Origin: an uncultured Acidobacteriota bacterium
Lineage (GTDB): Bacteria > Acidobacteriota > Vicinamibacteria > Fen-336
Direction: 5' to 3'
Assembly: GCA_963703985.1 (NCBI GenBank)
Contig: CAVPGH010000001.1
Coordinates: 1,122,746 to 1,186,745, forward strand
Length of the DNA stretch: 64,000 nt
This document shows positions 21,586-50,576 of the stretch, piece after piece. Under the pieces are notes generated by a model that saw only the letters and a list, made by a program, of their open reading frames with translations, made no database searches and had not been told where the DNA came from. The translations under genes were made by a program, and so were the position numbers. Numbering within the stretch: position 1 is the stretch's first letter; each line of letters opens with the position of its first letter.

Positions 21586-21594
21586 ACGGACCCC

Positions 21595-23288
21595 ATGCAG
21601 ATCGTGGCCAAGGCGAAGACGTACGACGTGTGCATCGTCGGCTCCGGCGCCGGAGGCGGCATGGCGGCCAAGGTCCTGGCCGAGGCGGGCGCCGATTGCG
21701 TGCTCCTCGAGGCGGGGCCGATGTGGGCGGCGAACAAGGACGGCGCGATGTTCAAGTGGAACTACGAGTCGCCGCGCCGCGGCGGCGGCTCGCGCCTCCG
21801 GCCCTTCGGCGAGTACGACGGCTGCATCGGGGGCTGGGACATCGAGGGCGAGCCCTACACCGTGGCCGAGGGCGATCGCTTCCTCTGGTTCCGCGGGCGG
21901 ATGCTCGGCGGGCGCACGAACCACTGGGGGCGGATCTCGCTGCGGGCGGGACCCTGGGACTTCAAGGGGAGGAGCCGCGACGGCCTCGGCGACGACTGGC
22001 CCATCGGCTACGATGACCTCAAGCCCTACTACGACCGGCTCGACGAGCTGGTCGGCCTCTACGGGTCGAACGAGGGGATCGAGAACGAGCCGGACGGGAT
22101 CTTCCAGCCGCCGCCCCCGCCACGGGCCTACGAGGGGCTCATCAAGAAGGCTTCCGACCAGCTCGGCGTTACCTGCATCCCGGCCCGGCGCTCCGTCCTC
22201 ACGAAGCCCCTGAACGGCCGGGCCCCCTGCCACTACTGCGGGCAGTGCCACCGCGGGTGCTCCACCGGCTCCAACTTCTCGACCCCGTCCGTGCTCCTTC
22301 CCCCCGCGCTCGCGACGGGACGCCTGACCCTCGTGACCGGGGCCATGGTCCGGGAGGTGCTGACGAACGAGGAGGGCCTGGCCACCGGCGTGTCGTACGT
22401 GGACACCGCCACCGGGCGCGAGCAGCAGGTGCGCGCCAAGATCGTGGTCCTTGCCGCCAGCGCCTGCGAGACCGCGCGTCTGCTCTTCAACTCGAAGTCG
22501 CCGCGGCATCCCGCCGGCCTCGCCAACTCCAGCGGCGCCGTCGGCCGCTACCTGACCGACACCACCGGCTCTCACCTGAGCGGCCACGTCCCCGCGCTCG
22601 AGGCCCTGCCTCCCTACAACGAAGACGGCACCGGAGGCATGCACGTCTACATGCCCTGGTGGCTGGACAACCGCACGCTCGACTTCCCGCGGGGCTACCA
22701 CATCGAGCCCTGGGGCGGCCGCTCGATGCCCGGGATCGGATTCATGGGCGGCATCCACCGCCTGCAGGGCGGCGGTTACGGGAAGAAGCTCAAGGACGAC
22801 TATCGCCGGCTCTACGGCTCGTTCGTCGGCTTCGCCGGCCGCGGCGAGATGATCCCCAACAAGGACTCGCTACTGCGAGATCGACCCGCGCGTGGTGGAC
22901 AAGTGGGGGATCCCCGTCCTGCGCTTCCACTGGAAGTGGTCGGACTACGAGCTCCTCCAGGCCCGGCACATGCAAGAGACGTTCGTCCGCATCATCGAGG
23001 CCATGGGGGGCAAGGTGATGGGCGACGTGCCCGGCCGGGCCGAGGAGTACGGCCTGAAGGTCGGGGGCGAGATCATCCACGAGGCGGGCACCACGCGCAT
23101 GGGCACGAGCCCGCTGCACCTCGGTCCTGAACGAGTGGTGCCAGGCCCACGACTGCAAGAACGTGTTCGTGGCGGACAGCGGGCCCTTCGTCAGCAACGC
23201 CCACAAGAACATGACCTGGACGATCCTCGCCCTCTCCATGCGGACGAGCGAGCACATCGTCGAGGAGCGACGGAAGGGGAACCTCTGA
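21595..23288 (+). CDS. GMC-family FAD oxidoreductase (glycoside 3-dehydrogenase-like catalytic subunit); two apparent +1 frameshifts
   Basis: N-terminal FAD motif [23 protein letters not shown]. Homology continues in a second frame from about 22866 ([19 protein letters not shown]...) and a third frame from about 23120 ([56 protein letters not shown]), matching the intact paralog at 58014-59708. Stop TGA overlaps the next gene's ATG. Confidence 0.7.
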
Positions 23289-23943
23289 TGAGCGAGATCG
23301 CACGACGTTCGGCCCTGCGCCTGATCGGGGGCGCGCCCCTCGCCGCGGGCTTCGGTCTGGGCGGGGGCGGGGGCGGCGCGGCGCCGGGGAGCAGGCGGCG
23401 AAGGCGGTGGCCGCCTCCCGCCAGGGCGTCGTCTACAAGCCGAGGTTCTTCACCGCCCACGAGTGGGAGACGGTGCGCGTGCTCGTGGACCTGATCCTCC
23501 CGCGCGACGAGCGGTCGGGCAGCGCCACCGACGCGGGCGTGCCCGAGTTCATGGACTTCTTCCTGACCGATCCCTACGAGGACGATCGCTCCCGCGAGAG
23601 CCGCCAGACCGCGATGCGGGGAGGCCTCGCCTGGATCGACGCGGAGTGCCGGCGCCGCTTCGGGGGCAAGGACTTCACGGAGTGCGCGGCACGCCGAGCA
23701 AGCCGCGCTCCTCGACGACATCGCCTACTGGAAGGGCGACGAGGAGGACGACCGGGCGATGCGCGACCGGGGCCCGCACGTCCTCCTGCGCCACGGCCCC
23801 AACTTCTTCAATTCCTTCCGGGACCTCACGGCCTCGGGCTTCTGGAGCAGCAAGATGGGCGTCGAAGATCTCGGCTACAAAGGCAACACGTTCGTCGTGG
23901 AGTTCCAGCCCCCGCCCGCGGAGGTCCTGCGCAAGCTCGGGCT
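23288..23943 (+). CDS. gluconate-2-dehydrogenase subunit-3-family small subunit (Tat signal), frameshifted
   Basis: [25 protein letters not shown] twin-arginine signal, then a frame change to ...AKAVAASRQGVVYKPRFFTAHEWETVRVLVDLILP..., and another to ...EQAALLDDIAYWKGDEEDDRAMRDRGPHVLLRHGPNFFNSFRDLTASGFWSSKMGVEDLGYKGNTFVVEF. No stop before the downstream DUF1080 ORF. Confidence 0.55.
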
Positions 23944-24694
23944 CGTGGTCGCGCTCGTCGCCTTCCTGGGGCCGGCGGCGGTTCGCGCCGCCGACGTCGG
24001 CAACTGGCCCATCCACGACCGCACCCGTCCCGCCCCGAAGGCGGTCGATCCGGGCACCGCCAGCACGCAGGAGCAGCCAGGCAAGCCGCCCTCGGACGCG
24101 ACCGTGCTCTTCGGCGGGAAGGACCTCTCGCTCTGGAAGTCCAAGAAGGACGGCGGCCCCGCCAAGTGGAAGGTGGAGAACGGCTACATGGAAGTCGTGA
24201 AGGGAACGGGCTACATCGAAACGGCCCAGGGCTTCGGCGACTGCCAGCTCCACGTGGAGTGGATGGCCCCTTCGCCGCCGGTGGGCCAGGACCAGGACCG
24301 CGGCAACAGCGGCGTCTTCCTGATGGGCCAGTACGAGGTGCAGGTGGTCGACTCCTATGAGAGCGCGACCTATCCCGACGGCCAGGCCGCGGCCCTCTAC
24401 GGTCAGTACCCGCCCCTCGTCAACGCCTCGCGTCCGCCCGGCCAGTGGCAGACCTACGACATCGTCTTCCACGCGCCGCGCTTCGACGCCGAGGGGAAGG
24501 TGACGCGGCCGGCGCGGGTGACCGTCCTGCACAACGGGGTGCTCGTGCAGGACGACGCGGAGCTCACCGGCCCTACGGCGCACAAGGCGCGCCCGCCCTA
24601 CACGGCCCACCCCGCGAAGCTGCCCCTCGCCCTGCAGGACCACGACCACCCGGTCCGCTATCGGAACATCTGGGTCCGGGAGCTGGCGGAGTAG
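23944..24694 (+). CDS. DUF1080 (3-keto-disaccharide-hydrolase-like, laminin-G jellyroll) protein
   Basis: Putative GTG start giving signal peptide VVALVAFLGPAAVRAADV; WKVENGYMEVVKGTGYIETAQGFGDCQLHVEW...NSGVFLMGQYEVQV...LPLALQDHDHPVRYRNIWVRELAE is characteristic of DUF1080. It is in frame with the upstream small-subunit ORF without an intervening stop. Confidence 0.65.
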
Positions 24695-24741
24695 GAGCCG
24701 CAGATACCGTCACGCGGGAGGGCTCGGCCGGAGATCGAGCG

Positions 24742-25964
24742 CTAGCGCGGGGTCCGCGCCGCCGGCCGCGCCTGCGCGGACCGCTTCTCGATCAGGAACG
24801 CCGCGAGGTCGGCCATGTCGCCGGGCCCGAAGCGTGGCCAGAGCACGCCCAACTTGCGCGATTCCTCTTCCATTTTCGGCGCGTGGTTCCACATCGCCGC
24901 GATGATGGCGATGGGGTCGTCGAGCTGGGGCACCTCGGCCAGGTTCGGCCCCAAGGCCGCGGCGGTGTGGCACCGCGAGCAGCGTTCCTCGAAGAGGCGG
25001 GCGCCGCGAGAGGGCGTGCCGCGAACGTCGGCGTAGTTCACGAAGTAGAGGTAGGCGATGATGTCCGCCATCTGCTCGCCCGAGAACTTGGTGTGGCTGA
25101 TCCCGCGGCGGGCGAACTCCGCGACCATCCCCTGGCCGTGGTTCCACATGACGCCGGCGATGGCCGATACCGAACCGATCAGCTCCCGGCGTCGCGTCCC
25201 GAGCTCGGGGCCGCCCCGGCCGCCCGTCCCGCCAACCGAGTGGCAGGCGTCGCAGCGCTTCGCGGCGAACAGGTCACGACCGCGCCGCGGGCTGCCGGGC
25301 TCGAAATACACGGGCTCGGCGCGACCCCACGTTGCCTGCCTGCAGGTAGCCGAGCAGGTCGCCCATCTCCCGACCCGCGAACCTGGGCCAGGGGATGCTC
25401 TGTCCCCGCATCAGCTTGGCCATCTCGGGCCCATGGTTCCACATCGCCTGGGCCAGGAAGATGGGCGAGAAGCGCCCCCGGTAGCGGTCCAGGCTCGGCC
25501 CGGGCTTGTCCCAGGAGTCGCCGCCTCCGTGACAGCTGCACGCATCCCTTGGAGACGAAGACGGCATGGCCCGCCGCGGGATTCGCCGGCTCCCCGACTT
25601 CGGTCAGGTAGTAGCGGTAGGCCGTGAGGAAGGCGACGAGGTCGGCCATCTCGCGGCTCGTCATCGTCGGCGCGGGGATCTTGAGGTCCTGCATCTTCTC
25701 CCGCATCACCGGAGAGTGGTTCCAGAAGGCGCCGGCGATGTCGAGCACCGTCCCCGTCAGGTGAATGCGTCCGAGGTCGGGCCCGACGCGCGCCTCCTCC
25801 CCGCCCAGCGAGTGGCAACGGACGCAGGCCTTCGTCACGAAGAGCCGCGCGCCGGCCGTCGGGTTGTTCGGCAGCTCGACCGAAAGGCGCACCGAGGGCT
25901 CCTCGGCCGCCGAGACGACACTCAGGCCGAGCAGGGCCACCGAGCCCAGGAGCCGGGCGCGCAT
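24742..25964 (-). CDS. c-type cytochrome of four tandem homologous monoheme domains (frameshifted)
   Basis: Signal peptide MRARLLGSVALLGLSVVSAAEE. Four repeats each carrying G.RLF...C..CH (CVRCH, C.SCH, CDACH, CSRCH), (A/V)xWNHxPxM, and MADLxAFL. Reading-frame changes at about 25570 and about 25320; the ATG overlaps the NrfD stop (TGATG). Confidence 0.6.
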
Positions 25965-27274
25965 CAGGCACCCACCTCGGCCATCTCTGCACCGGGGTGG
26001 TCGGCCCGCGTCCTGCGGCGCCGCCTCCTCCAGCTCCCAGATCGAGATGATCGGAAACAGCTTCGTGAACCCCATGTACAGCAGCGCGAAAGCCGCAAAG
26101 CAGCCCGCCATCAGCGACCACTCGACCCAGCTCGGCGCGTATCCGAAGCCGTGGATCGGCGCCCGCGGGTTCGAGAGCGACGGCACCACGATCGTGAAGC
26201 GCTCGAGCCACATCCCGATGTTGACCGAGATCGACGCCACCACGGTCCCCGCCACCGTGCGCGTCTTGTTGTTGGCCAGGATCACGAACGGGATCACGAA
26301 GCAGAAGACGAACATCGCCCAGAAGTAGGGGGCGAAGTGGCCCGAGAACTTGGCGTCGAAGACCGCGATCTCGTTGGGCTCGTGCGCGTACCAGGTCGTC
26401 AGGTACTCCGCGAAGGTGAAGTACAGCCACAGGCACGCCATCACGCAGCAGCAGCAGCCCGAGGTTGTTGAAGTGGATCGGCTTGCAGGTAGGCCTCGAG
26501 CCGGTACACCTTCCGGACGATCACCATCGCCGTGATGATGGCCGCGATCCCGGAGAAGATCGCCCCGACCACGAAGTACGGCCCGAAGATCGTGGAGTGC
26601 CACATCGGCTGGATCGTCATGGCGAACACCCACGACACCACGGTGTGCACGGAGACGGCGATCGGAATCACCAGGATCGCCATCACGCCGATGGCTCGCT
26701 CGAGGCGGTGCCATTGCTGCGGCGTGCCCGTCCAACCGAGCGACAGCCGTCGCGTAGAACCGGTGGCGCCAGCCTCGCCGTCCGATCGCGCAGCAGCGCG
26801 ATGTCCGGGATCAGCGGGCAGGTACAGGTAGAGGCTGCTGGCGGTGAGATAGACGCTGATGCTGGCCACGTCCCACAGCAGCGGCGAGCGGAAGTGCGGG
26901 TGCAGGATGACGTTCAGGGCGCGATCCGGCCGCCCCAGGTCCAGCAGCACGTTGCCGACGCCGAAGAAGAGCACCAGGACGGTGATCACCTCGGCCATCC
27001 GCGTGATCGGCCGGCGCCACTCGGCCTGAACGATGCGCAGGATCGCCGAGATCAGCGTCCCGGCGTGAGAGACGCCGATGAAGAAGACGAAGTTGGTGAT
27101 GTAGAGCCCCCAGTACACCGGCCGGCCGAGCCCGGTGGCTCCGAGGCCATGGATGAGCTGCCACGACCAGGCCATGACCGCCCAGGCGACCACGGCCGCC
27201 AGGCCGAGGGCCCATCGCCTGAAGGAAGGCCCCGTCGTCAGGACCGGCTCGAGGATGGCCGTGCTCTCCCTGCA
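25964..27274 (-). CDS. NrfD/PsrC-family integral membrane quinone-interacting subunit (frameshifted)
   Basis: Pieces in three frames: PSFRRWALGLAAVVAWAVMAWSWQLIHGLGATGLGRPVYWGLYITNFVFFIGVSHAGTLISAILR... and ...LWLYFTFAEYLTTWYAHEPNEIAVFDAKF...GMWLERFTIVVPSL...: polytopic NrfD-like. ATG at 27274 is 2 nt after the FeS-gene stop. Confidence 0.65.
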
Positions 27275-27276
27275 TG

Positions 27277-27956
27277 GCTACTCGCCCTCGCGCAGGTAGA
27301 CCACCTTGGGTCGCGTGCCCAGCTCCTCCATGAAGCGGAAGGCGCGTGCGCTCTCCACCAGCGGGGCGACGGGGTCGTGCGGATCGTCGAGATCGCCGAA
27401 GACCAGGGCCTCGGCGGGACAGGTCTGGACGCAGGCCGGCACGTAGTCGTCCGGCGCCAGCTCGCGCCCCGCCGCGCGCGGCGCGCTCGCGTGCCAGCAT
27501 CAAGCGGTGATGACAGAACGTGCACTTCTCGACGACGCCCTTGGGCCGCACCGACACGTCCGGGTTCATCATCGAAGCCATCGACTCGGGCCACTCCGGC
27601 GTGGTCCAGGTGAAGACCTTGACGGCGTAGGGACAGGCGTTGGTGCAGTAACGGCAACCGATGCAGCGCGGATAGACCTGCGCGACGATGCCTTCGGGGT
27701 TCAGGTAGGTGGCGCTCGTCGGACAGACGTCCACGCACGGCGGCCGATCGCAGTGCTGGCACATCAGCGGAAGCACGGCGGCCCCGGCGCGGCCCGGCAC
27801 CTCGGCCGGCACGAGCTGCAGCCAGGTCATGAGGCGGCCCTCGGCCGCGACCTCCGGCATCGAGAACGGCACGTTGTTCTCGTGCTTGCAGGCGACCACG
27901 CACGCCTGACAGCCGGTGCAACGGTCCAGATCGACGACCAGGCCCCAGCGCGACAC
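27277..27956 (-). CDS. 4Fe-4S ferredoxin-type subunit (PsrB/NrfC/ActB2-like), one frameshift
   Basis: GTG start with AGGAGG RBS; four Cys clusters (CTGCQACVVACK, CQHCDRPPCVDVCP, CIGCRYCTNACP, CTFCHH); after about 27460 the C-terminus continues in another frame (ELAPDDYVPACVQTCPAEALVFGDLDDPHDPVAPLVE...VVYLREGE*). Confidence 0.75.
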
Positions 27957-27966
27957 GAGATGCCTC

Positions 27967-30181
27967 CTAGGCGCGCGTGACGCGCACCATCAAATCCCCG
28001 CCGACGGGCGACGTCGTCCGCGAGCAGGCGCAGGTCCGAAGCGATTTTGCGCGCCCAGCGACCGCTCCCCGGGACGGCCGGCACGAAGGCGAGCGCGACC
28101 GAGTCGGCGGGCATCTTCTCGACCAGGACCGCCACCGCCTCCACCGCGCCCCGCGGCGAGACGATCCGGATGCGGGCGCCCGCCCCGACCGCCAGCGCGC
28201 GCGCGGTCTCGGGGCTCAGCTCGGCCCAGGCCTGCCACGGCGCGCCGTCCGGCTGGCCGAGCAGCTCGAAGAGCGCGGGCTGGTTGGGGCTGCCCCGGTC
28301 GGTGACGAGGGCCGGCTTGAACGGAACGAGGCGCAGGGGATACTCGGCGGCCCCGACCCGCGCCGACGAGCGCCCGGCGGCCGCTTTCGCCAAGGCCACG
28401 GCCGGCGATGAAAGGCGCAGGCCCGCGCGGGCGCGCAGCGATTCACGGACCCGCCCCGGGGTGACGTACGGGTCGGCCCAGCCGCCGGCCTCCACCACCG
28501 CCGCGGCGAACGCTTCGCGGGATGGCGCCGGGGCGACCCACCAGCCGCCCTTTTCGAGCTGCCGCACCCATTCGGTTTCGTAGAGGTCCGAATAGGGAGC
28601 GCCGCGCCTCAGGCCACAGAGCCGCTCCAGCTCGTCGTGAACGACGTCGTCCGAGGCCGTCCATGGGCACGCGCCGGCGAGCGGCTCGCCCGCGCCGACC
28701 GCGACGTCCTTGAGCAGAGAGGCCGCGTCCTTCGTGGACAGCAGCGGCTTGACGGCCGGCTTGGCGATGGCCACCGCTTCGAGGGCAGCGGCCTGAGCCG
28801 GCAGCGTGGCGTGCCAGCTCTCGAGAGCCGTGTGCGTTGGCATCAGCAGGTCGGCGATCGCCGCGGCTTCGTCGAGGAAGGGGGAGAAGCTCACGACGAG
28901 GTCCGTCGGCCGCAGCGCCGCCCCCAGGTTGCGCGGCGATGCCAGCGCGCGCAGCGCCGAGGCGTCCCGGAAGGCCAGGATCGCGGGACGGATCCGGCCC
29001 TCGGCGACCTCCCGCAGCGTCGTCGTCGCGTCTTCCACCTCGGCGGCCGGGCGCCGGGGCGCGCAGGTCACGCCGCCCGCCCGGTCGAACGCGCCGATGA
29101 GCGCATTGAGGGCGAAGACCGCCTCGACCAGGGAACGGTCGGCATCCGCCGCCACCACCGCCAGCGGTCTGGCGCTGCTGGCCAGCTCGCGGGCCAGCCG
29201 GAGCACCGTCACCACCGGCACACCGGTCACCGAAGCGACGTCGTCGGGCGTGTAGTTGGCGGCCACCTCGCGCTCGAAAGCGGCGAGGTCGCCCCCCAGG
29301 TCGTCGAGGAACGCGCGGTTGACGCGGTTCTCGCGCAGCAGGACGTAGGCGATGCCGTAGGCGAGCACGGCCTGCCTTTCGGAATGGACCGCGAGCCACT
29401 CGTCGGCCTTGCGCGCCGTCATCGAGCGGCGGGGCTCGATCTGGACCAGCCTTCCCCGCGCGCCGGATCCGCGCCGGAAGCGGCCGTAGCTGCGCTGGGT
29501 CCAGACTCCCGACAGCCAGTCCTCGGCGACCGGCGCGCCGAACGACAGCACGTAGCTGGCGTGCTCCAGGTCGAAGAGCGGATCCGCGGAGACGCCGGTC
29601 AAGGCCCGGAAGGCAGGGCCGAGCCGGGCCGCGCTAGCGGCCCGCGTCCACACGACCCGGGCGCCCGCCGCCGTCCAGAAGCGCGTCCAGGCGTCGGCCA
29701 AAGGCCCCTCTTCTTCGGAAGCGAGGGCAAGCACGCCTTGGCGCCCACCGCCGGCATCCCGCAGTCGCGATGCCAGGAGGGCGATCGCGGCGTCCCACGT
29801 GATCGGCTCCCACTGCCCTTCGCCTCTCTTCCCCACGCGTCGAGCGGGGCCCACCAGACGGTCGGGGTCGAAGTAGGACTCGAGCGATGCCTGGCCCTTC
29901 GCGCACAGCCGCCCGCGCGAGACGGGGCAGAGCGGGTTGCCCTCCAGCTTGACCGGCGCGCCGTCCATCAGCCGTACGCGGATCCCGCAGGCCGCCGGGC
30001 ACTCGCGACAGACGCTCGTGGCCCAGCTCTCGACGCCTCGTCCCCGCCAGCCGGCGGCGCGCTCGTCGGCGCGCGCGAGCTGTCGACGGCCCAGCTCCCC
30101 GAGCGTGATGCCGGCGAGGGTCGCGCCCCCGTAGACCAGGAAGTCCCGGCGGCTCAGCGATTGGTCGCTCATCGATGGCAC
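27967..30181 (-). CDS. molybdopterin-oxidoreductase-family catalytic-like subunit (PsrA/ActB1-like), Tat-exported
   Basis: MSDQSLSRRDFLVYGGATLAGI Tat signal; N-terminal FeS motif CRECPAACGIRVRL...CPVSRGRLCAKGQA; about 735 aa. The ORF-track frame runs on to 27827, but the likely true end is ...GDLMVRVTRA* in another frame (stop at about 27967) just before the FeS-gene RBS. Confidence 0.75.
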
Positions 30182-30651
30182 GCCGCGCAGTCCTGGCTGG
30201 CGCCCTCACGCTTGTGGCAGTCGAGACAGGCGTTCATATCCAAGCGCATCGGTGGGCGCCCGGGCGGCACGGCGCTCGTCCCCACGTCCGCGTGGCACGA
30301 CGCACACTCGAGCCGGGCGAGGCCGACGTGGCGCCGGTGAGAGAACATGACGTGCTCCGGGAGATGGGAAACGCGCAGCCAGGCGATCGGCTGGGCGCGC
30401 CCGGCCTCGTCCCATTTCACCCCCGCCGCGGCCCTCGGAGCCGTGGCGTGGCACTTCAGGCACACCGCCGCCTCGGGGATGCCGGCACGGGCTTGCTCAA
30501 AGGCGCCGCGGTGGCAGACGCCGCAGCCCATCCCTGCATGCCGGGCATGGTTGAAGGCGACAGGCTGGGCGAGGGGCGCCCGCGGCAGCAGCAGCATCCA
30601 TGCGCCGGCCACGGCCAGCGTCAGCGCGGCGAATCGAAGCAATCGGCCCAT
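30169..30651 (-). CDS. pentaheme c-type cytochrome (NrfB/ActA-like)
   Basis: Signal peptide plus five CxxCH motifs (CGVCH, CLKCH, CASCH, CLDCH, CAACH) in 160 aa; overlaps the Mo-subunit start by 13 nt. Confidence 0.75.
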   Translation of the reverse strand: MGRLLRFAALTLAVAGAWMLLLPRAPLAQPVAFNHARHAGMGCGVCHRGAFEQARAGIPEAAVCLKCHATAPRAAAGVKWDEAGRAQPIAWLRVSHLPEHVMFSHRRHVGLARLECASCHADVGTSAVPPGRPPMRLDMNACLDCHKREGASQDCAACHR

Positions 30652-30663
30652 GAGGGAAGCGGC

Positions 30664-31077
30664 CTAAAGGCCGGGTTTCGCCGCCGCCTCTTTGAGCTTC
30701 TTGTCGTAGAGCTCCTTCTTGCGGATCTTCGAGTCGTACACGACGAACTCGAAGATCTGCTTGCCCTCGTCCGGGCTGATGAAAGTGCCCGCCTTGCGCA
30801 TCATCCTCTTGATGTAGCGCTCCCACTCGTCGTCGAGGACGAATTCGCAGTTGATCGCGCGGGCCGGCGTGTGGCACTTGCTGCACTTCGTCAAGAAGAC
30901 CTTGTAGCGGGCCTTCATGTCTTCGGGGTACTTGGAGACGTCGATCTTGGCCGGACCCTTGTCATACGCGAGGATCCGCGGATCGACCGGCTCCTCCTTG
31001 TCCTGGGCCACGATCTTCAGGGCGAGCGCCGCGAAGGCCAGCAAGACAAGCGCGGTGACCGTAACGGTACGTGTCAT
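30664..31077 (-). CDS. monoheme c-type cytochrome, secreted (lysine-rich, lower GC)
   Basis: Signal peptide MTRTVTVTALVLLAFAALALK; single CSKCH; GC visibly lower (about 60%) than the flanks. Confidence 0.6.
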   Translation of the reverse strand: MTRTVTVTALVLLAFAALALKIVAQDKEEPVDPRILAYDKGPAKIDVSKYPEDMKARYKVFLTKCSKCHTPARAINCEFVLDDEWERYIKRMMRKAGTFISPDEGKQIFEFVVYDSKIRKKELYDKKLKEAAAKPGL

Positions 31078-31093
31078 GTCGGAAGCTCCTCCT

Positions 31094-33793
31094 CTAGAAG
31101 TTCAGGATGTAGGACACACCGAAGATGCTCACCCCGTAATTGAACGGCTGCTCGTTGGTCGGCAGCACGCCGCTCAGCGACCCGAGCTGCATGCCCTCGT
31201 AGGCCGGGTCGTTGGATCGCATGCGCAAGTACGAGTAGTCCAGGCGCACCGACTGGCGCTTGTCGATCGCGAATCGGCCGCTCAGGCGCAGCTCGCCCGT
31301 GTTGGTGGTGATCGTCGGCATCGGGGCGCCCGCGATGAAGAACGCCGCGATGGTCGTCGGAGGCCCGCCCGGGCCGTTGAGGATGTTGTTGGCCCAGTTT
31401 CCGCCCGCCGCTGCGCTGGTGTCCGACCGCGCGCGGGACAGGATCAAGTTGCCCAGAAGGTCGAAGCTGCCGGCCCGCTTCCGCAACCCGACGCCCACCG
31501 TGTGCACCTTGTCGAGCATGTTCGTGGACCAGTCCAGGCACGGGTCCAGCTTGTTGTTGTTGTTCCGCTGTTGCAGCGTGGTGTAGCCGTCGCAGCTGTT
31601 GCCCGAGAGGCCGACCGCCCCTGGCTGACCGTTGTTCAAGGCGGCCACGTTGCTGTTGGCCGTATAGCTGTTGCCCGCGCGTCATGGGAACTGAAGTTCT
31701 CGTACGTGTAGCAGACGTTCACGCTCGTGGCGTCGCCCAGCGCGTAGGTCCCGTCGACGTTCACGGCCCAGTTCTTTGCGTCCTGAACGCCGTAGGTCGA
31801 GCCGGGGTAGCGGTCCTTGTTGAGATCCAGGCCGCCCTGGAACGACAGCTGCTCGGTTGCCTGCCAGCTGAGCAACGCGCGCAGCTTGTCTCGATTGCGA
31901 TCCGCCACGTAGTAGCGGCGCATCCCCGGAAGCTCGCTGATCCGGTTGTTGTTGGCGTACATCGCGTTGGCCAGGGCGTTGTTGCTCGGGAAGAACAGGT
32001 TCATGTTGCCGGTGGTGACGGCGAAGCCGGCCGCAGGTCCCCATCCGTTCCAACCGTTCGCCTGCATGAACGAAAGAGCGGTCGCGCCCCCGGTCGCCGC
32101 GGCCGGGCTGACGTTGGCGTACGGGACCAGCGCCAGGAAGGCGTTCTCGTTGTAGTCCGGCGCTCTGCGCGCGGAATACGCATAGCCGACCCGGGCGGTG
32201 ACCTTCTCACCCAGCGTGCGCCCGCCATTCGGCCCGCAGCGTGTGCTCGTTGGTCGTCGCCGCATCCGCGCAGCTGATCCAGGACGCGAAGCAGGCGCGG
32301 TCGATCTTCTCGAACTCGTAGCCGACCTTGATCCACTGGCCCTTCACGAAGCCGTAGTCGGCCTCGGCGGTGACCTGATTGAGCTTCCTGCTGTACGGAC
32401 GATTGGCGTTTGCGTTCTGTGCGACAACGGCGCCGAGAGGATTGTTGGGGCCGGCGGGGAAATTGGCGTTCGCCGCGGGCGCTTCGCCGGCGTCCGCGTA
32501 CTGGTAGATGTTGACGGCGGTGCGGTTGTCGCGGTCGTCGTACCTGTACGCCGCGGTCAGGGTCAGCTTCTTTGCCGGCCGGGTCGTGAATCGGCGTTGA
32601 ACGTCGTGGTCACGACGAGGCCGTCCAGCGAGCTGACCGGCACCACCGGCGTCGTCGCATCGGTCAGGAACGCGTCGTTCTGCGTGTTGCGTCGCGTACG
32701 ATCCGGTCGCGACCAGCTTGGTGGTCGAGCGAGAAGTTCATGCCGCCGGTCGCGTTCCACTGGTTGAAGGTGTTGCCCGGCGTGCTGCTCATGGTGTTGA
32801 CCGACCCTCGTGGGGGTCGCCCAGTTCTGCCACGACATGAACGGCACGTTGTTCTTGAAGAACGAGCCGTAGTACCCGGCCTGCGCGAAGCTCTTCGGGC
32901 CCGTGAAATTCAGACTCATGGCGACCTGGTTGTGATCGGTGTCGATCACATCGGGAATGATGGTCGAGATGTCGGCGCCGGTGTTTCGAGAGACCGTCCC
33001 CATCGGCTTCACACCGTCCTTGTGCTCGGGCCGGAAAGTCACGTCGACTCCCCAGCGCTGGTCGAAGTTGTAGTTGAGGCCGACGTCGAACCTCGTGCGC
33101 TTCGTGAACAGGTTGAAGTTGTGGAACAGCGGCACGTCGGCGGCCGCGGCGGCGTCGACGAGCGCCGTCTGGGCCGCGTTCGGCGTTCGCAACGCGCCCA
33201 TCGCCGGCGAGTTCGTCGCGACGTCGATGTAAGGCGCGTCGCCGATCGCCGGGATGAGGCCTCGCGCGCTGACGATGTTCGTCGTGTTGTTGGTGCCGCT
33301 GCTTCCGGCCACCGTCGGTACGATGCCAGGATCGCGGCAACGTGAGGACGTTCGTCCCCGTGCCGTTGAACGGCGTCTGATACGTGTCCGATCGGTTCCG
33401 GCGCAGCTCGTCGTAGCCGAACGTCAGCCGGAACTTGCCCTGCTGGCCGATCTGGGCGGATGCATTCGCGATCTCGAGGCCGAGATCGGTGCCCTTGATG
33501 CGCCACCGCAGCGTGCTGTCGCTGTTGTAGCCGGCGGCGCCGCCGCGCCAGTCGAGGTTGCCGATGCCGAACGCGCCCTTGTTCTCGAGGCCGTTGTATT
33601 CGCCGGCCTTGTAGGACCCGTCGCCGACGGTGCCCGCGCCGACTTCGACCGTGCTCGTCGGCTTGGTTTGGGCTTCCGCATGGGCAGCGTACGCGCGCCA
33701 GCGCCGCCGCGAGCGCGACTCGAGCGACGGCCACGCGAGCCCGGGTAGGCGAATTCGCTGTGCGTTTGTCATGACATCGCTCCCTGATCGCAT
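31094..33793 (-). CDS. MtrB/PioB-family outer-membrane porin (decaheme-associated beta-barrel), multiply frameshifted
   Basis: About 900 codons spread over at least three frames (ORFs 32789-33793, 32563-33312, 31636-32265, 31094-31648). Recurring beta-strand, Gly/Asn/Tyr-rich composition and the motif GYDELRRNRSDTYQTPF; terminal YILNF aromatic C-terminus; lies immediately downstream of the decaheme cytochrome. Confidence 0.55.
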
Positions 33794-33797
33794 CGGG

Positions 33798-34824
33798 TTA
33801 GCGCTGGAACTTCGCGCCGGCCGGGTGATTCGAGCCGTGAATCAGCACATGACAGTTCAGACACGCGCGCGCGCCCGCCTGGGCGCGCGGCGCCGCCGCG
33901 CCGGGCTGCTGAAGCCCGTTGATGGTGGTCACGTCGCCGACCGCCAGGTTCGCACCGCTGTTGACCTGTGCGCCGTGGTCGCCGCTGTGGCACTCCTGGC
34001 ACAGCCACGGCGCGCGCGCCTTGAGCAGCGGTGCGTTGCTCGAGCCGTGCGGCGTGTGGCAGTTGGTGCAGTCGTCCGAGACCGGCGCGTGCTCCCAGAG
34101 GAACGGGCCGCGCTTCTCGGGATGGCAGGTGAAGCAGGTCTCGTTGACCGAGTTCTTGACGAGCATCTTCGGACCGGTCGACCCGTGCGGGTTGTGGCAG
34201 TCCGAGCAGGCCATCTTGGCGGCGCTGGCCAGGCTGGTCACCGCCAGCGGATGGGTCGAGATGCGCCGCGTCTGCGCGCGCTGCGCCTTGTGGCAGGTGA
34301 AGCAGACGTCGGCCTGGGTCGCCTTGCTCAGCACCTTCTGTTCGGGAGCGTGGATGTTGTGGCAGTCGGTGCAGGCGACGCCACGACCCTCGTGCTGGCT
34401 GGCCGGTCCAGTAGGAGCGCAGGCCGGCCTCGTGGCACGACAGGCACTTGGCATTGCGTTCGGCGACGGGCGAGGCTTTCCGCCCCTTGTACACGATGCC
34501 CACCGGATTGCTCGTGACGGCAATGTGGTCGGGACTCGCCCCGTGACACGTTTCGCACAGGTGCTGGGCGAACGGCGTGCGCTGATCGCCCTTGACGGCG
34601 TGCGGCGTCTGGAGGATCAACGTGGTCGGCTCTTGGTTGTGGCACTCGCGCAGGCAGGTCTGCACGGGATTCGGCGCGTACTCCGGCGGTCCGGGCGCGG
34701 GCGCAGAGGTCGGCTCCTGGTCGGCGCGCGCCGGCGCGGTCGCGACGGTGAGCGCGGCGAGGACCAGCGCGCCGATGTGGGCAGCGTGTCTTTGGCGTTG
34801 CACGGAACGGGCGCGGATTGACAT
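33798..34824 (-). CDS. decaheme c-type cytochrome (MtrA/MtoA/PioA-like), one frameshift
   Basis: ATG at 34824 with AAGGAG RBS; signal peptide MSIRARSVQRQRHAAHIGALVLAALTVATAPARA. Hemes 1-3 (CLRECH, CETCH, CLSCH) are in one frame. Hemes 4-10 (CTDCH, CFTCH, CSDCH, CFTCH, CTNCH, CQECH, CLNCH) are in the frame of ORF 33798-34523. Total ten CxxCH in about 340 aa. Confidence 0.7.
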
Positions 34825-34859
34825 GGGTTCTGCGCTCCTTCGACAGAGAGCCGTCGGCT

Positions 34860-35312
34860 TCACCGCCACTTCTCCGCGGCCCCGGACTTCGGAAGGAGGC
34901 TCATGAGGTGCTCGACCAGGTCGGTCAGCTCCGCGTCGGACATCTGAGCGCCCCAGCCGGGCATCCTGTACGGCGGCCGCGGACCTTTCGCGTCCTCGCG
35001 GCCGATCGTCGCCAGGCCATCGAGGATCTTCTTCTTCAGCTCGGCGCGCGTGAACCCCTCCGCCACGAACGTCAAGCCGGGCACTTTGCCGTCTGTCTCC
35101 GCGTTCCGGTTGGCGAACCCGCCCTTGGCGTCGGCGCCGTGGCACAGCCCGCACCCGTAGCGCTCGTAGACGCGGCGGCCGCGTTCCGGAGCGGCCTCCC
35201 GGCCCGCGTCACGGGGCACGGCGCGAACGATACGGGGCAGCGGCGTCCGCGTCTGGGCCCAGGCGGCCATGCCCAGCAGGACCAGCAGCGCGAACGGGAG
35301 CAGCCGCCTCAC
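34860..35312 (-). CDS. monoheme class-I c-type cytochrome, secreted
   Basis: Signal peptide MRRLLPFALLVLLGMAAWAQ; CGLCH; 150 aa. Confidence 0.65.
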   Translation of the reverse strand: MRRLLPFALLVLLGMAAWAQTRTPLPRIVRAVPRDAGREAAPERGRRVYERYGCGLCHGADAKGGFANRNAETDGKVPGLTFVAEGFTRAELKKKILDGLATIGREDAKGPRPPYRMPGWGAQMSDAELTDLVEHLMSLLPKSGAAEKWR

Positions 35313-35369
35313 GCCCCCAACGATGGGCCCCGAGAATTAAGGAACGATGAAACGCCGGTGAGGGACGCC

Positions 35370-36851
35370 TTAATCCAGCGAGGACGCCGGGTCGGCTTGG
35401 GGGGCCGGCTGGGAAGGGGGCGATCCGGCCCCCTCGGGCGCACTTGGCAGGTAGACCGCGAAAGTGGACCCCCGGCCGGGGACGCTGGTGAGCTTGATGG
35501 TGCCCCGGTGCAGCCGCACGATCTGCTCGACGATGGCGAGACCGAGGCCGGAACCGCCCGTGTCGCGAGCACGCGCCGGATCCGATCGGTAGAACGGCTC
35601 GAAGATGTGGGGCAGATCCTGTGGCTCGATCCCACAGCCGTGATCCACGACCATCACCATCGCGTGGCCGTGGGGCCGCCCAACGGTCACGACGACGTTG
35701 GACGCGGCCGGAGAATAGCGGATCGCGTTCTGGAGCAGGTTGAGCACGACCCGCCGCAGGTGGAGCGGGCTGCCGAGCACCAGGGGGCGGCCCTGGATGG
35801 ACGTCTCCACCACCACCTGTTTCTCCTCCGCCATGGCGCTCGCGATCTCGCAGCACTCCAACACGAGCTCGGCCAGGTCCACGCCCTCGGCCACCTCCAG
35901 CATCTGACCTCGATCGGCCAGGGCCAGCAAGCGCAGATCACGGATCAGCGTCGACAGGCGCTCGGTCTCCTCGAGCAGGCCGGCGGCGAGCGCGCGGTAG
36001 TCGGTCGGAGTCCGATCCGCGCGCAAGCACAACTCGACGGCACCGCGCATCGCGGCCAGCGGCGTCTGCAGCTCGTGCGACGCGTCGGCCGCGAAGCGGC
36101 GGGCGCTGCGGAGCGATCCCTCGATCCGGTCGAGCATCTCGTTGAGGGTCGTGGCCAAGCCGTCGATCTCGTCGCTGCCGGTACGCGCCTCGAGCCGCTC
36201 GTTGATGTGGGCCGATTGGATCAGCTGGACCCGGCGCACGATCTCGTCCACCGGGGCCAGCGCCCGGCGCGCGGTGAAGGCGCTGCCGTAGCTCGCGAGC
36301 ACCAGCACCACCACGATGGACAGCACCATCCCGAGGGCCAGGCGGACCTGGTCGCGGCGCACCGGCTCCACCGAGGCCGCCAACTGCACGATCAGGCTCT
36401 CCGCTCCCGGTCGTGGGACCACGGCCGTCGCGACCCGTAGCGGGGCTCCCGAGATGTCCGCCACGGTGATGAGCGGCGTGCGCTCGCGGACCGCCGCCGC
36501 GGCCGCGCGCTCGCTCGCCCAGTCCAGCCGCGGGAACCCCCGCGAGCGGAAGAGCACCGGTCCGGACGCCTGGCGCACGAGCACCGGCGCCTCCGCCGCC
36601 ACCTCGCTCGCGAGAACGCTTGCCACGTCGAGGGTCAGCAGAGCCGCGCGGCGATCCGCCACGAACCCGAGCAGGCGCACTTGCAGCTCGCGATCGAGCT
36701 CGTGGTAGGAGGTCCGCGCCTGGCTGACCAGGACGAACACGGCCAGGGTTCCGAGCGCGCCGCTGAGGGTGAGCAGGTACCAGAGCGTCAGGCGGGTGCG
36801 AAGGCTCCTAGGGCGAAGTCGAGCCAGGATCCCCAAGGACATACCCCACAC
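35370..36851 (-). CDS. sensor histidine kinase (CusS/CzcS heavy-metal-sensor-like)
   Basis: Two TM helices with periplasmic loop, HAMP, H-box ASHELQTPLAAMRGAVE, and HATPase G-boxes (DHGCGI, GGSGLGLAIV). Confidence 0.8.
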   Translation of the reverse strand: MWGMSLGILARLRPRSLRTRLTLWYLLTLSGALGTLAVFVLVSQARTSYHELDRELQVRLLGFVADRRAALLTLDVASVLASEVAAEAPVLVRQASGPVLFRSRGFPRLDWASERAAAAAVRERTPLITVADISGAPLRVATAVVPRPGAESLIVQLAASVEPVRRDQVRLALGMVLSIVVVLVLASYGSAFTARRALAPVDEIVRRVQLIQSAHINERLEARTGSDEIDGLATTLNEMLDRIEGSLRSARRFAADASHELQTPLAAMRGAVELCLRADRTPTDYRALAAGLLEETERLSTLIRDLRLLALADRGQMLEVAEGVDLAELVLECCEIASAMAEEKQVVVETSIQGRPLVLGSPLHLRRVVLNLLQNAIRYSPAASNVVVTVGRPHGHAMVMVVDHGCGIEPQDLPHIFEPFYRSDPARARDTGGSGLGLAIVEQIVRLHRGTIKLTSVPGRGSTFAVYLPSAPEGAGSPPSQPAPQADPASSLD

Positions 36852-37494
36852 CGCGGACGGCCACTATCAGGCTGGGCCGCCCGGGAACGTCGAGCTTCTC
36901 GCGCAAGTGCTTGACGTGAACGTCGACCACGTTGCTCCCGGGATCGAAAGTGCAGTCCCACACGTGCTCGGCGATCATGGCCCGAGTCAGCACGACACCG
37001 GACCGCCGCATGAGGTACTCCAAGAGCGCGTACTCCCTCGGGGTGAGGGCGATCAGCCGGCCGGATCGCTTGACGGTGTGCGTCGCGGGATCGAGATCCA
37101 GGTCCCCGGCGGTGAGGACCGGCGCTTCCGTGACGCGGTGGCGCCGGCTCAGGGCGCGCAGGCGCGCCGCCAGTTCCTCCAGCGCGAACGGCTTGACCAG
37201 GTAGTCGTCGGCTCCCGCATCCAGCCCACGGACGCGGTCCTCGACCATGTCCCGCGCCGAGATGATGAGGATCCGGGTCTTGTTGCCCGCCGCGCGAAGG
37301 CGCTTGCAGACGGTCAGGCCGTCGATGCCGGGCAGCATCAGGTCCAGCACGATCGCGTCGTAGTCGTAGGTGGCGGCCAGCTCCAGAGCGCTCGGGCCGT
37401 CGTGTGCGACGTCGACGGCAAACGACTCCTCGGCGAGCGCCCGACAGATGTAGTGCGCCATGCGCCGCTCGTCCTCGACGACCAGGAGCCTCAA
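36808..37494 (-). CDS. OmpR-family response regulator (CusR-like)
   Basis: Receiver MRLLVVEDERR...DLMLPGIDG...wHTH VRGVGYVL; the likely TTG start at 37494 restores the receiver N-terminus (the ORF-track start 37581 is too far upstream). Confidence 0.75.
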   Translation of the reverse strand: MRLLVVEDERRMAHYICRALAEESFAVDVAHDGPSALELAATYDYDAIVLDLMLPGIDGLTVCKRLRAAGNKTRILIISARDMVEDRVRGLDAGADDYLVKPFALEELAARLRALSRRHRVTEAPVLTAGDLDLDPATHTVKRSGRLIALTPREYALLEYLMRRSGVVLTRAMIAEHVWDCTFDPGSNVVDVHVKHLREKLDVPGRPSLIVAVRGVGYVLGDPGSTSP

Positions 37495-37756
37495 CTGGTT
37501 GCCCGGCGCGGCTCGGCCCGCGCTACTCGACCCGGTGCCCCAGGTCGTGCGGCAGGCCGAGGTCCTTGATCTGCCCGACACCCTTGTCGAGCAAGCCCGC
37601 TGACCGGCAAGGTCGGGTCATCGGGGCGAAGGTGGACGTTCTGCGGCATGGCTCGCGGTATCGCGAGCGACAACTATGCCGCGGGCGCGGGCTGCGCGCA
37701 AACGCCGAGTAGTCAAAGCGCCTCGAAGGTCCCGAAAAAGCCAGGTCCTATCCCTC

Positions 37757-44276: not shown

Positions 44277-45206
44277 ATGGAACTACGCCATCTGAAGGGG
44301 TTCCTCGCCGTGGCTCGGCACGGCCACTTCACGCGGGCCGCCGGACAGCTGGGCCTGGCCCAGCCGGCGCTCTCGCAGCAGATTGCCCAGCTCGAGGAGG
44401 AGCTGGGGGTGGCGGTCTTCGAGCGCTCCCGGCGCGGGGCGCGGCTGACCGCGGCCGGCCAGTCGCTCGTCCGGCGGGCGGAGCGGATCTTCCTGGAGGT
44501 CGACGAGGCCCGCCGCGAGGCAGGGCGATATGCGAGCCTCGACCACGGACGCGTGGTGATCGGAACGATCTCGTCGATCGCGGTCCTGCGTCTGCCCGCG
44601 CTGTTGGCCCGGTTCCGGGCCCGCCACCCGGGCGTCGAAGTCGAGGTCCGCGAGGGCCACGTTGCGCGACTTCTGGAGCTGCTCGGATCGGGGGCGCTCG
44701 ATCTGGCGGTGGTCCACACGGGCTCTCTGAGAACGGGGCGGGTCGCACCGCCACCCGGGCGGGGGGGAGCGCAGATCTCGTGGGAGACGGCCTATTCCGA
44801 GGAGCTGGTGCTGATCGTGGGCCGCCGCCATCGACTGGCGCATGCGCGTGAGGTTCGATGGGTCGACCTGAGCGATGAAGCGTTCGTCATGTTCCATGAG
44901 GGCTCGATGCTGCGAGGCATCGTCGGGGCCGCCGCGGCGGTCGCGGGCTTCAGCGCGCGCATCGCGCTCGAGGTGGACGAGACCGCGACCGTGCGCTCGT
45001 TCGTCGCGGCCGGCCTCGGCGTGTCGGTGCTGCCGCGCTCCATGGCGGCGTCACCCGGTCCGCCGGTCGACCTCGTGCGCCTGGCCGTCCCCCGGCTCTT
45101 TCGGACCGTTCGCCTGGGCTGGCGGCGACAGGCAGACGCCAACCCCGCGGCGGTCGCCCTGGTCGACCTCCTCCGTTCGCAATTGGTCCGGCTTGGTCAA
45201 CCGTGA
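44277..45206 (+). CDS. LysR-family transcriptional regulator
   Basis: MELRHLKGFLAVARHGHFTRAAGQLGLAQPALSQQIAQLEEELGV HTH; LysR substrate-binding domain. Confidence 0.8.
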   Translation: MELRHLKGFLAVARHGHFTRAAGQLGLAQPALSQQIAQLEEELGVAVFERSRRGARLTAAGQSLVRRAERIFLEVDEARREAGRYASLDHGRVVIGTISSIAVLRLPALLARFRARHPGVEVEVREGHVARLLELLGSGALDLAVVHTGSLRTGRVAPPPGRGGAQISWETAYSEELVLIVGRRHRLAHAREVRWVDLSDEAFVMFHEGSMLRGIVGAAAAVAGFSARIALEVDETATVRSFVAAGLGVSVLPRSMAASPGPPVDLVRLAVPRLFRTVRLGWRRQADANPAAVALVDLLRSQLVRLGQP

Positions 45207-45264
45207 CTGGCGCAGCGGTCGACCCGCCCGACGGCGGCGGGAAGTCATTGAAGGGCCTGGTAGG

Positions 45265-45479
45265 GGTTGGCTCCTCAGGTAGGATTCGAACCGAGAATCA
45301 GCCTCCGACGCCAGCCGACTCGGACCCACGCGATCCTGACCCGGATGGCACTTAGCTCACTTCGCCTTCGGTCAGGCTTGACCCGATTCTCACCGAGAAG
45401 AGGGACAGTTGAGGGACAGTCAGGCCCGCGGCATTTCCCGAACGCTCAAGACTTCGTGCTCCGTCGCCTGCGCGAAGCC
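45265..45479. repeat. direct repeat copy 1 (about 215 bp; first 154 bp near-identical to copy 2) with tRNA-like T-loop/CCA motif on the minus strand
   Basis: 45265-45418 differs from 50015-50159 at 2 positions; minus strand reads ...GGTTCGAATCCTACCTGAGGAGCCA; the tail 45419-45479 is more diverged. Confidence 0.6.
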
Positions 45480-45551
45480 CCTCCTCGGGCGCGTCCTGCG
45501 TCAGAACCACGCGCCGGTACATTCGATGGGGACTCGCACCAGGGGCCTCTC

Positions 45552-48446: not shown

Positions 48447-48450
48447 TGGG

Positions 48451-49038
48451 TCAATTCTGCCTCAGACGGTCGAATAGCCAGGCTCGGGCCACCGTCCAGT
48501 CGCGCTTCACGGTGGGGACCGACACTCCCACCACCTCGGCCACCTCCTCCAGCTTCAGGCCGCCGAAATATCGCAGTTCGACGACTCGACCCTGCCGGGC
48601 GTTGAGGGCGGACAGCTCGCAGAGTGCCTCGTCGAGCAGGACGAGATCGACCTCGGGCTCCGCGACCGATTGGACGGCCTCGTTCAATGTCACGTGAATG
48701 GCGTCGCGCTTGGCCGCACGCCGCCGCCGAGCGTGATCGACGAGGATCCGGCGCATCAGGTTGGAGGCCACGCCGAAGAAGTGGGACCTGCTGCGCCAGT
48801 GGCCCCGGAGGCCGACGAGCCTCAAATAGGCCTCGTGGACCAGCGCCGTGGGTTGAAGGGTATGCCCGGGTCGCTCTCTGCGAAGGTAGGCTCCGGCGCG
48901 GCGGCGCAACTCATCGTAAACCAGGGGGATCAGCCGGCGTCCGGCCTCTTCGTCCCCCGCATTCCAGGCCTGGAGCAGGGCGGTTACCGACTCCGGCGGC
49001 TGAAACTTCACCGTGGGCTCGGCCCCATTGTGAGCCAT
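48451..49038 (-). CDS. ECF sigma factor (STK-associated ECF subgroup)
   Basis: Sigma-70 regions 2 and 4 (LVHEAYLRL; LEEVAEVVGVSVPTVKRDW); N-terminal extension TALLQAWNAGDEEAGRRLIPLVYDELRR typical of ECFs paired with protein kinases. Confidence 0.8.
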   Translation of the reverse strand: MAHNGAEPTVKFQPPESVTALLQAWNAGDEEAGRRLIPLVYDELRRRAGAYLRRERPGHTLQPTALVHEAYLRLVGLRGHWRSRSHFFGVASNLMRRILVDHARRRRAAKRDAIHVTLNEAVQSVAEPEVDLVLLDEALCELSALNARQGRVVELRYFGGLKLEEVAEVVGVSVPTVKRDWTVARAWLFDRLRQN

Positions 49039-50023: not shown

Positions 50024-50219
50024 GATTCGAACCGAGAATCAGCCTCCGACGCCAGCCGACTCAAACCCACGCGATCCTGACCCGGATGGCACTTAGCTCA
50101 CTTCGCCTTCGGTCAGGCTTGACCCGATTCTCACCGAGAAGAGGGACAGTTGAGGGACACTCGTCAGGCGCGTGCCATCTCCCTGACGCTCAGAACCTCG
50201 TGCTCCGTCGCTTCGCGGA
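50015..50219. repeat. direct repeat copy 2
   Basis: See copy 1; 50015-50159 is near-identical to 45265-45418, with a 3-nt insertion then a diverged tail. Confidence 0.6.
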
Positions 50220-50283
50220 CGGCTCCGGCGAAGGCTTCTCGGCGCACCTCCCCAGGCCCTTCCGGAATGAATCGCCCGACTCG

Positions 50284-50322
50284 TCACGCATTTCTTGCTA
50301 CACGCATTTCTTGCTATTGACG
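50284..50322 (+). promoter_or_regulatory. tandem 16-bp direct repeat abutting a -35-like TTGACG
   Basis: CACGCATTTCTTGCTA occurs twice (50285-50316), followed by TTGACG, N17, TAGCCT. A second palindrome TGCAATCGATGCATTGCA lies at 50540-50557, just upstream of the AAGGAG RBS of the 50577 gene. Confidence 0.3.
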
Positions 50323-50576
50323 TGGGCCGCGGCGCGGCGTAGCCTGCGCGCACCTACCCTGAGAACCATGATGGCAGCCGCCTTTCCTCGTCCCCTCGGC
50401 CGCCACGGGCGTCCTCGGTCCGCCACCGAGCCGGGGGCGACTCCGGAGGTGTTCGTGCACCTGGATAGCCGCGGACGAGCGCGTTGGGCCGAGCACGCGG
50501 GCCGTCGGTGTGGTTGTGTGGTCTCTCGGCGTCGAACCATGCAATCGATGCATTGCAGCGGAAAAGGAGATGGTCC

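Follow-up and report, generated by a model that had tools for sequence, protein, structure and literature searches.

Conduits that pair a multiheme c-type cytochrome with an outer-membrane beta-barrel are known as MtrAB in Shewanella, where the complex has been solved (6R2Q), as MtoAB in Betaproteobacteria, and as PioAB in Rhodopseudomonas palustris TIE-1, in which they serve phototrophic Fe(II) oxidation or electron uptake. PioB and MtoB have been modelled as 26-strand barrels, and PioA and PioB homologs are already on record for Acidobacteria (PMC10654088). MtoA and PioA do not form function-specific clades (Baker et al., PMC8805035). Here we describe a pair of this kind in a 64-kb stretch of DNA (the window, which is the whole stretch analyzed; G+C content about 69%) from a soil/groundwater Acidobacteriota bacterium. 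Six-frame translation shows two genes on the minus strand, first a cytochrome gene and then a barrel gene, running from position 34824 down to 31094. Very probably, 31094-34824 codes for a porin-cytochrome conduit of the MtoAB/PioAB type with two components, belonging to a Vicinamibacteria (Acidobacteriota) bacterium, and the frame breaks seen in it are a local assembly error. A preliminary description had proposed the decaheme gene beside a barrel gene as a candidate MtrAB/PioAB pair, and both proteins exceed the curated family cutoffs. The pair is of an ordinary kind that standard pipelines already annotate, relatives with 87-89% identity are public, and as a gene identification it adds little to a well-known and routinely annotated family.

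The decaheme cytochrome and its barrel partner

The pair consists of the following genes:
33798..34824, minus strand: decaheme c-type cytochrome of the MtrA/MtoA/DmsE family, 341 aa once a +1 insertion at 34405 is removed
31094..33772, minus strand: outer-membrane beta-barrel of the MtrB/MtoB/PioB family, 889 aa after removal of ten +1 insertions and padding of one deletion

The cytochrome gene starts with ATG at 34824 and ends with a stop codon at 33800-33798, and its product carries a general secretory (Sec) signal peptide. When compared to TIGR03508, the model for DmsE-family decaheme cytochromes, the protein obtained 280.7 bits (cutoff 192.2) over profile positions 3-257 of 258. It also matches the solved MtrA (6R2Q_A) by sequence with E=7e-68, residues 57-333 being aligned and all ten heme sites being included. 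The barrel was compared to curated models as the frameshift-stitched protein, for which 374.7 bits were obtained against TIGR03509 (MtrB/PioB; cutoff 240.05), a family check that had been suggested in the preliminary description, and 385.1 bits against PF11854, covering profile positions 8-635 of 635. Against the solved MtrB (6R2Q_B), the profile of the barrel family gave E=5.7e-42. As had been described earlier, the protein is rich in Gly and Asn (9.3% each), with 4.2% Tyr, and its C-terminus (...GVSYILNF) ends with the aromatic YILNF, a beta-signal as judged by eye, before the stop codon at 31094.

A search with the barrel gave 528 homologs at E<=1e-10. Among the best 120 of these 528, nearly all have a length of 870-910 aa, many already bear the name 'MtrB/PioB family decaheme-associated outer membrane protein' in NCBI or JGI records, and the organisms that are named belong to Acidobacteriota or Vicinamibacterales. 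More distant barrel relatives (42-51% identity) occur in metagenome-assembled genomes (MAGs) of Gallionellaceae, Sulfuricella, Leptothrix ochracea, Rhizobacter and Methyloglobulus, lineages for which MtoAB has been discussed. A scan of species-representative genomes with two peptide patterns led to 35 loci, a set that is biased to this sub-family. A multiheme gene is located directly upstream of the barrel gene in 33 of the 35, and except for three of these 33 it contains nine or ten heme motifs. The closest locus, L001, belongs to the Vicinamibacteria MAG JBGPBV010000130, a short-read assembly, and its DNA is 90.4% identical to positions 27493-37533 of the window in one alignment.

Within the 341 aa of the cytochrome there are ten heme-binding motifs, nine of the CxxCH and one of the CxxxCH type, and the first of them is located at residue 57. 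The preliminary description had counted ten CxxCH motifs in about 340 aa. The number of motifs is confirmed, the first one, however, is CLRECH (CX3CH; window 34656-34639, minus strand), and as sequenced the ten are not contained in one open reading frame (ORF), since the +1 insertion at 34405 leaves the first three in one frame and the last seven in another. The CX3CH at heme 1 is not a sequencing error, because the same motif is present in L001 and variants of it are found in L009 (CLRQCH), L011 (CTSACH), L029 and L032 (CLKQCH in both). On sequence comparison it appears to be a trait of a subclade of acidobacterial MtrA homologs, and other relatives show CxxCH at the heme-1 site.

A structure was modelled with AlphaFold2 for P0001, an 87%-identical homolog. 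The model contains about 25 long strands and, at the N-terminus, a short one, with strand blocks that are mostly at a predicted local distance difference test (pLDDT) value of 80-93; this count, which is approximate, comes close to the 26-28 strands that had been anticipated for the barrel. In a Foldseek search, the best fold match of the P0001 model in the PDB was MtrB (6R2Q_B; E=2.5e-25). The same search returned TonB-dependent transporters, with a weak barrel-level similarity (E ~1e-8, template modelling score 0.27-0.31) of the kind that would be expected if a generic outer-membrane protein, either a TonB-dependent receptor or a porin, were located beside an unrelated periplasmic multiheme cytochrome. 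These matches are, however, about 17 orders of magnitude weaker than that of MtrB, no Plug or TonB_dep_Rec domain was detected in the barrel by the domain scan, the MtrB_PioB hidden Markov model (HMM) is matched over its full length, and a multiheme gene immediately precedes the barrel gene in almost all related loci. A coincidental neighbourhood of this sort is hardly conceivable, and an assignment as TonB receptor or generic outer-membrane protein is effectively refuted by the family HMMs, the MtrB profile match and the fold match. The lack of a barrel or the presence of a generic TonB receptor, which the preliminary description had mentioned as findings that would contradict it, were thus not encountered.

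For the barrel gene, homologs support a start at ATG 33772, which is located 25 nt past the stop codon of the cytochrome gene and is preceded by AGGGAG. Another ATG at 33793, with a spacing of 5 nt, is in frame solely through an inserted base at 33782, inside the ribosome-binding site. The barrel gene is located directly downstream of the cytochrome gene, as reported before, with a gap of 25 nt instead of 5 nt.

Two cysteine pairs are invariant in the barrel family, ACFASWISC and SCDGYTTLQQRNNNNKLDPC (C492/C499 and C724/C742 in P0001), and correspond to about 32290-32270 and 31590-31530 of the window. In the P0001 model, C724/C742 is located within a low-confidence segment, and C492/C499 spans a strand end and the short low-confidence segment after it. 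These pairs may form disulfide-stapled loops.

Reading-frame breaks in and around the pair

Neither gene of the pair is an intact ORF as sequenced; the barrel gene reads through all three frames and the cytochrome gene switches frame once. Frameshifts were mapped by an alignment of P0001 to the DNA that allows frameshifts and by direct alignment of the window with L001, and both ways gave concordant results. The barrel gene contains ten +1 insertions (33763, 33746, 33696, 33325, 32803, 32729, 32694, 32219, 31685, 31680) and one -1 deletion (32592), intergenic +1 insertions are found at 33782 and 35322, and correction of the indels leads to stop-free ORFs of 889 aa and 341 aa. Three of the insertions lie within the first 26 codons of the barrel gene, so that a hydrophobic segment is visible only in an alternate frame. 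They sum to a net +3, by which the frame is restored, and after their removal a signal peptide MTNHSEFASRARVAVARVALAAALAAYAAHA/EAQ is seen, as judged by eye without a predictor. In this region the preliminary description had suspected two compensating indels. Indels are indeed present in the sequence, yet they are three +1 insertions (33763, 33746 and 33696), and the suspicion, although right, was understated, as the barrel gene has 11 frameshifts and the cytochrome gene one, and seven +1 insertions and the -1 deletion had been missed.

The breaks extend beyond the pair, and the following features are affected in addition to the operon genes listed in the next section:
22865..35322, both strands: frameshift-rich stretch with about 27 frameshifts in three transcription units, a sequence-quality feature
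21587-24689, plus strand: GMC oxidoreductase gene and gluconate-2-dehydrogenase-subunit-3-like gene (twin-arginine translocation (Tat) signal), with frame breaks near 22865, 23121, 23378 and 23681

The approximately 27 frameshifts comprise 21 mapped +1 insertions, one mapped -1 deletion and four or five breaks inferred in the plus-strand genes, and they occur in patches at 22.8-23.7, 25.3-28.0 and 31.7-34.4 kb. Other insertions in the operon are located at 28005, at 27479, at 26818, 26775, 26753, 26476 and 26445, and at 25538 and 25318. Only 2 of the 14 indels seen against L001 extend a homopolymer. Frame breaks were also searched for throughout the window using a codon-usage Viterbi model together with a stop-distance check; a frame plot of G+C content at third codon positions was too noisy. 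Outside 21.5-35.4 kb the codon-usage model changed frame only close to stop codons, 45.2-47.5 and 50.0-51.8 kb being outside the assessment, and genes for proteins of 900-1100 aa outside 22.8-35.3 kb are intact with full-length HMM coverage. No frameshift was thus detected in the other ~51 kb of the window. When JGI metagenome contigs were scanned once with an exact pattern over the 33325 site, the inserted base being optional, no match was obtained, and exact look-ups of the proteins from three intact genes of the window were negative as well.

The reading-frame breaks are most likely sequence artefacts, and the genes would be intact in the organism. We draw this from the sequence comparison with relatives, in which the window is the aberrant copy, since L001, a relative assembled from short reads, is intact and over 100 homologs have full length. 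If the frameshifts were real, this organism would have a decaying pseudogene cluster made up of the mtrAB pair and a large part of the respiratory module next to it. The strong clustering would fit such decay, with 12 frameshifts in the 3.7 kb of the pair versus 2 in the other ~6.3 kb aligned to L001, and with the 3.7 kb at 28.0-31.7 kb as well as the two-component genes being clean. However, all but one of the 22 mapped indels are insertions of a single base, mostly outside homopolymers, a spectrum that we regard as unlike that of indels arising naturally in bacteria, which are biased to deletions and driven by slippage. Also, the breaks hit the iron-sulfur (FeS), NrfD and cytochrome c genes and, within the same stretch, the unrelated sugar-oxidoreductase genes on the opposite strand. 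They are confined to about 12.5 kb and concern three transcription units, with normal purifying selection. After removal of the indels, the ratio of non-synonymous to synonymous substitution rates (dN/dS) versus L001 amounted to 0.37 in the barrel gene and to 0.17 in the cytochrome gene, on par with the intact neighbours (0.23-0.33), and no nonsense substitutions are left in the pair after correction. Because of this indel spectrum, the spread of the breaks over unrelated genes and the ordinary dN/dS values, we favour an artefact and consider a pseudogene cluster unlikely. The best explanation for the errors would be a long-read assembly that was insufficiently corrected in this stretch. As a consequence, gene calls, pseudogene calls and 'novel ORFs' within 22.8-35.3 kb are suspect.

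Some side observations were made elsewhere in the window. After the gluconate-2-dehydrogenase-subunit-3-like protein a further domain continues in the same frame, for which no tool gave a match, and a second, intact GMC oxidoreductase gene is located at 58015-59685. Positions 45172-47526 and 50016-51789, in a region with a slightly lower G+C content (about 65%), were not called coding by the codon-usage model, and an open frame of 2.9 kb on the minus strand (45552..48464) was scored coding in part only. Scans of the whole window for tRNAs and Rfam families gave no match.

Operon neighbours and a possible route to the quinone pool

The pair is part of a same-strand cluster of about 10.5 kb in which genes overlap or are separated by intergenic gaps of 35, 25, 16 and 12 nt, and two-component genes are located upstream on the same strand. 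The genes around the pair are:
36808..37581, minus strand: OmpR-type response regulator of a two-component system, intact
35370..36851, minus strand: HAMP/HisKA histidine kinase of the same two-component system, intact
34860..35312, minus strand: monoheme class-I cytochrome c (CGLCH; PF00034, PF13442) of 150 aa, including a signal peptide; its gene is separated from the decaheme gene downstream by 35 nt
30664..31077, minus strand: exported protein of 137 aa with a single CSKCH motif, starting 16 nt past the barrel stop codon
30169..30651, minus strand: pentaheme c7/c3-type cytochrome, QrcA/ActA-like (QrcA 69 bits, cutoff 180)
27967..30181, minus strand: Tat-exported molybdopterin-oxidoreductase-like subunit, QrcB/ActB1-like, with a +1 insertion at 28005 that shifts the frame just before the stop codon
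27278..27956, minus strand: 4Fe-4S subunit, QrcC/DsrO/ActB2-like, with a +1 insertion at 27479
25990..27275 (approximate), minus strand: NrfD-type integral-membrane quinone-interacting subunit, DsrP/QrcD/ActC-like, with five +1 insertions
24742..25985 (start approximate), minus strand: protein with four class-I monoheme cytochrome c domains, with +1 insertions at 25538 and 25318

Both the two-component genes and the monoheme cytochrome c gene are kept beside mtrAB in relatives, and the monoheme protein is a candidate periplasmic carrier that is MtoD-like by position. The exported 137-aa protein did not match any Pfam or NCBIfam family; it is found in 10 related loci (50-86% identity) and in 9 of the 10 it is accompanied by the pentaheme gene. 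In the four-domain cytochrome c the heme motifs are CVRCH, CVSCH (after correction), CDACH and CSRCH. Apart from the pentaheme gene at 30169..30651, no MtrC/OmcA-type ORF or other ORF with at least five hemes was detected in the 64 kb, and no ORF for a tetraheme cytochrome of the CymA type was found in the window. Within the operon there is no room for a high-potential iron-sulfur protein (HiPIP), as all ORFs from 24.7 to 35.3 kb belong to other families.

Comparison of the downstream module with the Qrc models (NF041781-4) gave 69 bits for QrcA (cutoff 180), 242.5 for QrcB (cutoff 440), 236.7 for QrcC (cutoff 400) and 44.7 for QrcD (cutoff 570), whereas DsrO was just at its cutoff (200.2/200) and DsrP reached 122 of 350 bits. 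Strict QrcABCD membership was rejected, all four models being below cutoff, and canonical membership in alternative complex III (ACIII) was rejected as well, since one NrfD-type gene is followed by the four-domain cytochrome c gene; the libraries used are without a dedicated ACIII HMM. By its sequence matches, the module appears to be a relative of Qrc/ACIII/Dsr-type complexes and not a member of them. In 14 Acidobacteriota loci it is found no more than 10 kb away from mtrAB, and this is the case in none of the nine proteobacterial loci. Two arrangements occur: downstream and co-directional in the window, L001, L011, L016, L029 and L032, or upstream and on the opposite strand in L003, L004, L006, L008, L010, L013, L014, L027 and L035.

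Another function that was considered for this gene order is a DmsEFAB-like system, in which the decaheme cytochrome and the barrel would pass electrons to the neighbouring molybdopterin and FeS subunits, giving an extracellular terminal reductase like that of dimethyl sulfoxide respiration in Shewanella. The order of decaheme, barrel and, further on, molybdopterin and FeS subunits does recall dmsEFAB, the DmsE family is the best model for the cytochrome, and the molybdopterin subunit has weak DmsA/PhsA-type matches. Its best match, however, is QrcB (242.5 bits), a protein known as a cofactor-less scaffold. In addition, an NrfD-type membrane subunit and a pentaheme QrcA/ActA-like cytochrome are present, which are typical of inner-membrane quinone-interacting complexes, and we know of no membrane-anchor subunit in the Shewanella dms operon. 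In relatives including L003, L008, L013 and L014 the module is opposite in strand to mtrAB. An extracellular reductase is therefore improbable at this locus.

For a conduit of the MtoAB/PioAB type, by homology to the solved Shewanella MtrAB, the periplasmic decaheme cytochrome would be inserted in an outer-membrane barrel of about 26 strands, and its heme chain would conduct electrons across the outer membrane. Periplasmic monoheme carriers could then bridge this conduit and the Qrc/ACIII-like quinone module, an inner-membrane complex that would replace CymA or MtoC as the link to the quinone pool. Inward electron flow, that is oxidation of Fe(II) or of other extracellular donors or minerals, is favoured by a narrow margin over outward reduction, because an MtrC-type surface cytochrome is missing and because the partner is Qrc-like (cytochrome to menaquinone). 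We tentatively propose, as a reading that is somewhat short of an even chance, that Vicinamibacteria-type Acidobacteriota possess a lineage-specific complete trans-envelope pathway, leading from an MtoAB-type conduit with CX3CH at heme 1 through monohemes to a dedicated Qrc/ACIII-like quinone oxidoreductase and provided with its own two-component regulator. In the literature that could be searched, we found no description of Vicinamibacteria MtoAB or of a Qrc/ACIII-like linkage, which is absence of evidence only.

Several points weigh against the interpretation given here. Function and direction are read from homology and gene neighbourhood only, and this holds for the acidobacterial members as well. 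The absence of MtrC is a weak indicator of direction, given the lack of function-specific clades of MtoA and PioA (PMC8805035). The AlphaFold2 model of P0001 is poor overall, with a mean pLDDT of 58, a predicted template modelling score of 0.52 and poor loops, which makes its strand count approximate. The homologs available for modelling all have identities of at least 60%. Support for the artefact interpretation of the frameshifts is indirect, and the Qrc-like subunits all score under the NCBIfam Qrc cutoffs.

Novelty is only mild and limited to the clade-specific CX3CH first heme and to the conserved linkage to the Qrc/ACIII-like module. If this linkage is functional, it would represent a new way for outer-membrane conduits to connect with the quinone pool, and it would suggest that widespread soil Acidobacteriota take part in the redox cycling of iron. 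If the proposed pathway is true, abundant 'heterotrophs' of soil and groundwater would be capable of Fe(II) or mineral oxidation or of extracellular respiration.

Comparison with known systems

With PioAB(C) from R. palustris TIE-1 the pair shares both families, TIGR03508 and TIGR03509, as well as the lack of an extracellular cytochrome. PioA, however, has a heme-free N-terminal region (1-270; PMC10654088), whereas the cytochrome described here has 341 aa and is without such an extension, and the HiPIP PioC of the PioABC system has no counterpart in an operon that offers no room for its gene.

In the case of Shewanella MtrCAB (6R2Q), MtrB is the best solved match of the barrel by sequence as well as by structure, and MtrA aligns at all ten hemes. 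In contrast, counterparts of MtrC, OmcA and CymA were not found in the 64 kb, and the barrel family described here is about 200 aa longer than MtrB, with an identity of 18% in the structural alignment. The extra ~200 aa, which fall in low-confidence segments of the model, are taken to be loops.

Group 5 MtrCAB clusters of Acidobacteriia/Bryobacterales (Baker et al. 2022, PMC8805035) come from the same phylum and have the same MtrAB core. They differ from the present cluster in that they contain MtrC and a tetraheme cytochrome, whereas MtrC is missing here, and in that no inner-membrane quinone oxidoreductase was reported nearby, whereas a quinone-interacting module is present here.

The Mto system resembles the pair in its two components, a ~340-aa decaheme cytochrome and, after it, a large barrel, without MtrC. 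As with mtoD there, a monoheme cytochrome c gene is adjacent here, a likeness that is by position only. The barrel is 42-51% identical to those in the Gallionellaceae, Sulfuricella, Leptothrix ochracea and Rhizobacter MAG loci. However, the hosts of Mto are Betaproteobacteria and the host here belongs to Acidobacteriota, with CX3CH at heme 1. Also, Mto uses an inner-membrane cytochrome, CymA (NapC/NirT tetraheme) or MtoC, whereas none is encoded in the window and a Qrc/ACIII-like complex is present in the operon.

When compared to ACIII, the module has one NrfD subunit instead of two (ActC, ActF), and a four-domain monoheme cytochrome c takes the place of ActD and the monoheme ActE. With both Qrc and ACIII it shares the same subunit logic, in which a multiheme cytochrome is combined with molybdopterin-like and 4Fe-4S subunits and with an NrfD membrane subunit. 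For microaerophilic Fe oxidisers, it has been suggested that ACIII acts as the partner of Cyc2 at the inner membrane (PMC5566968).

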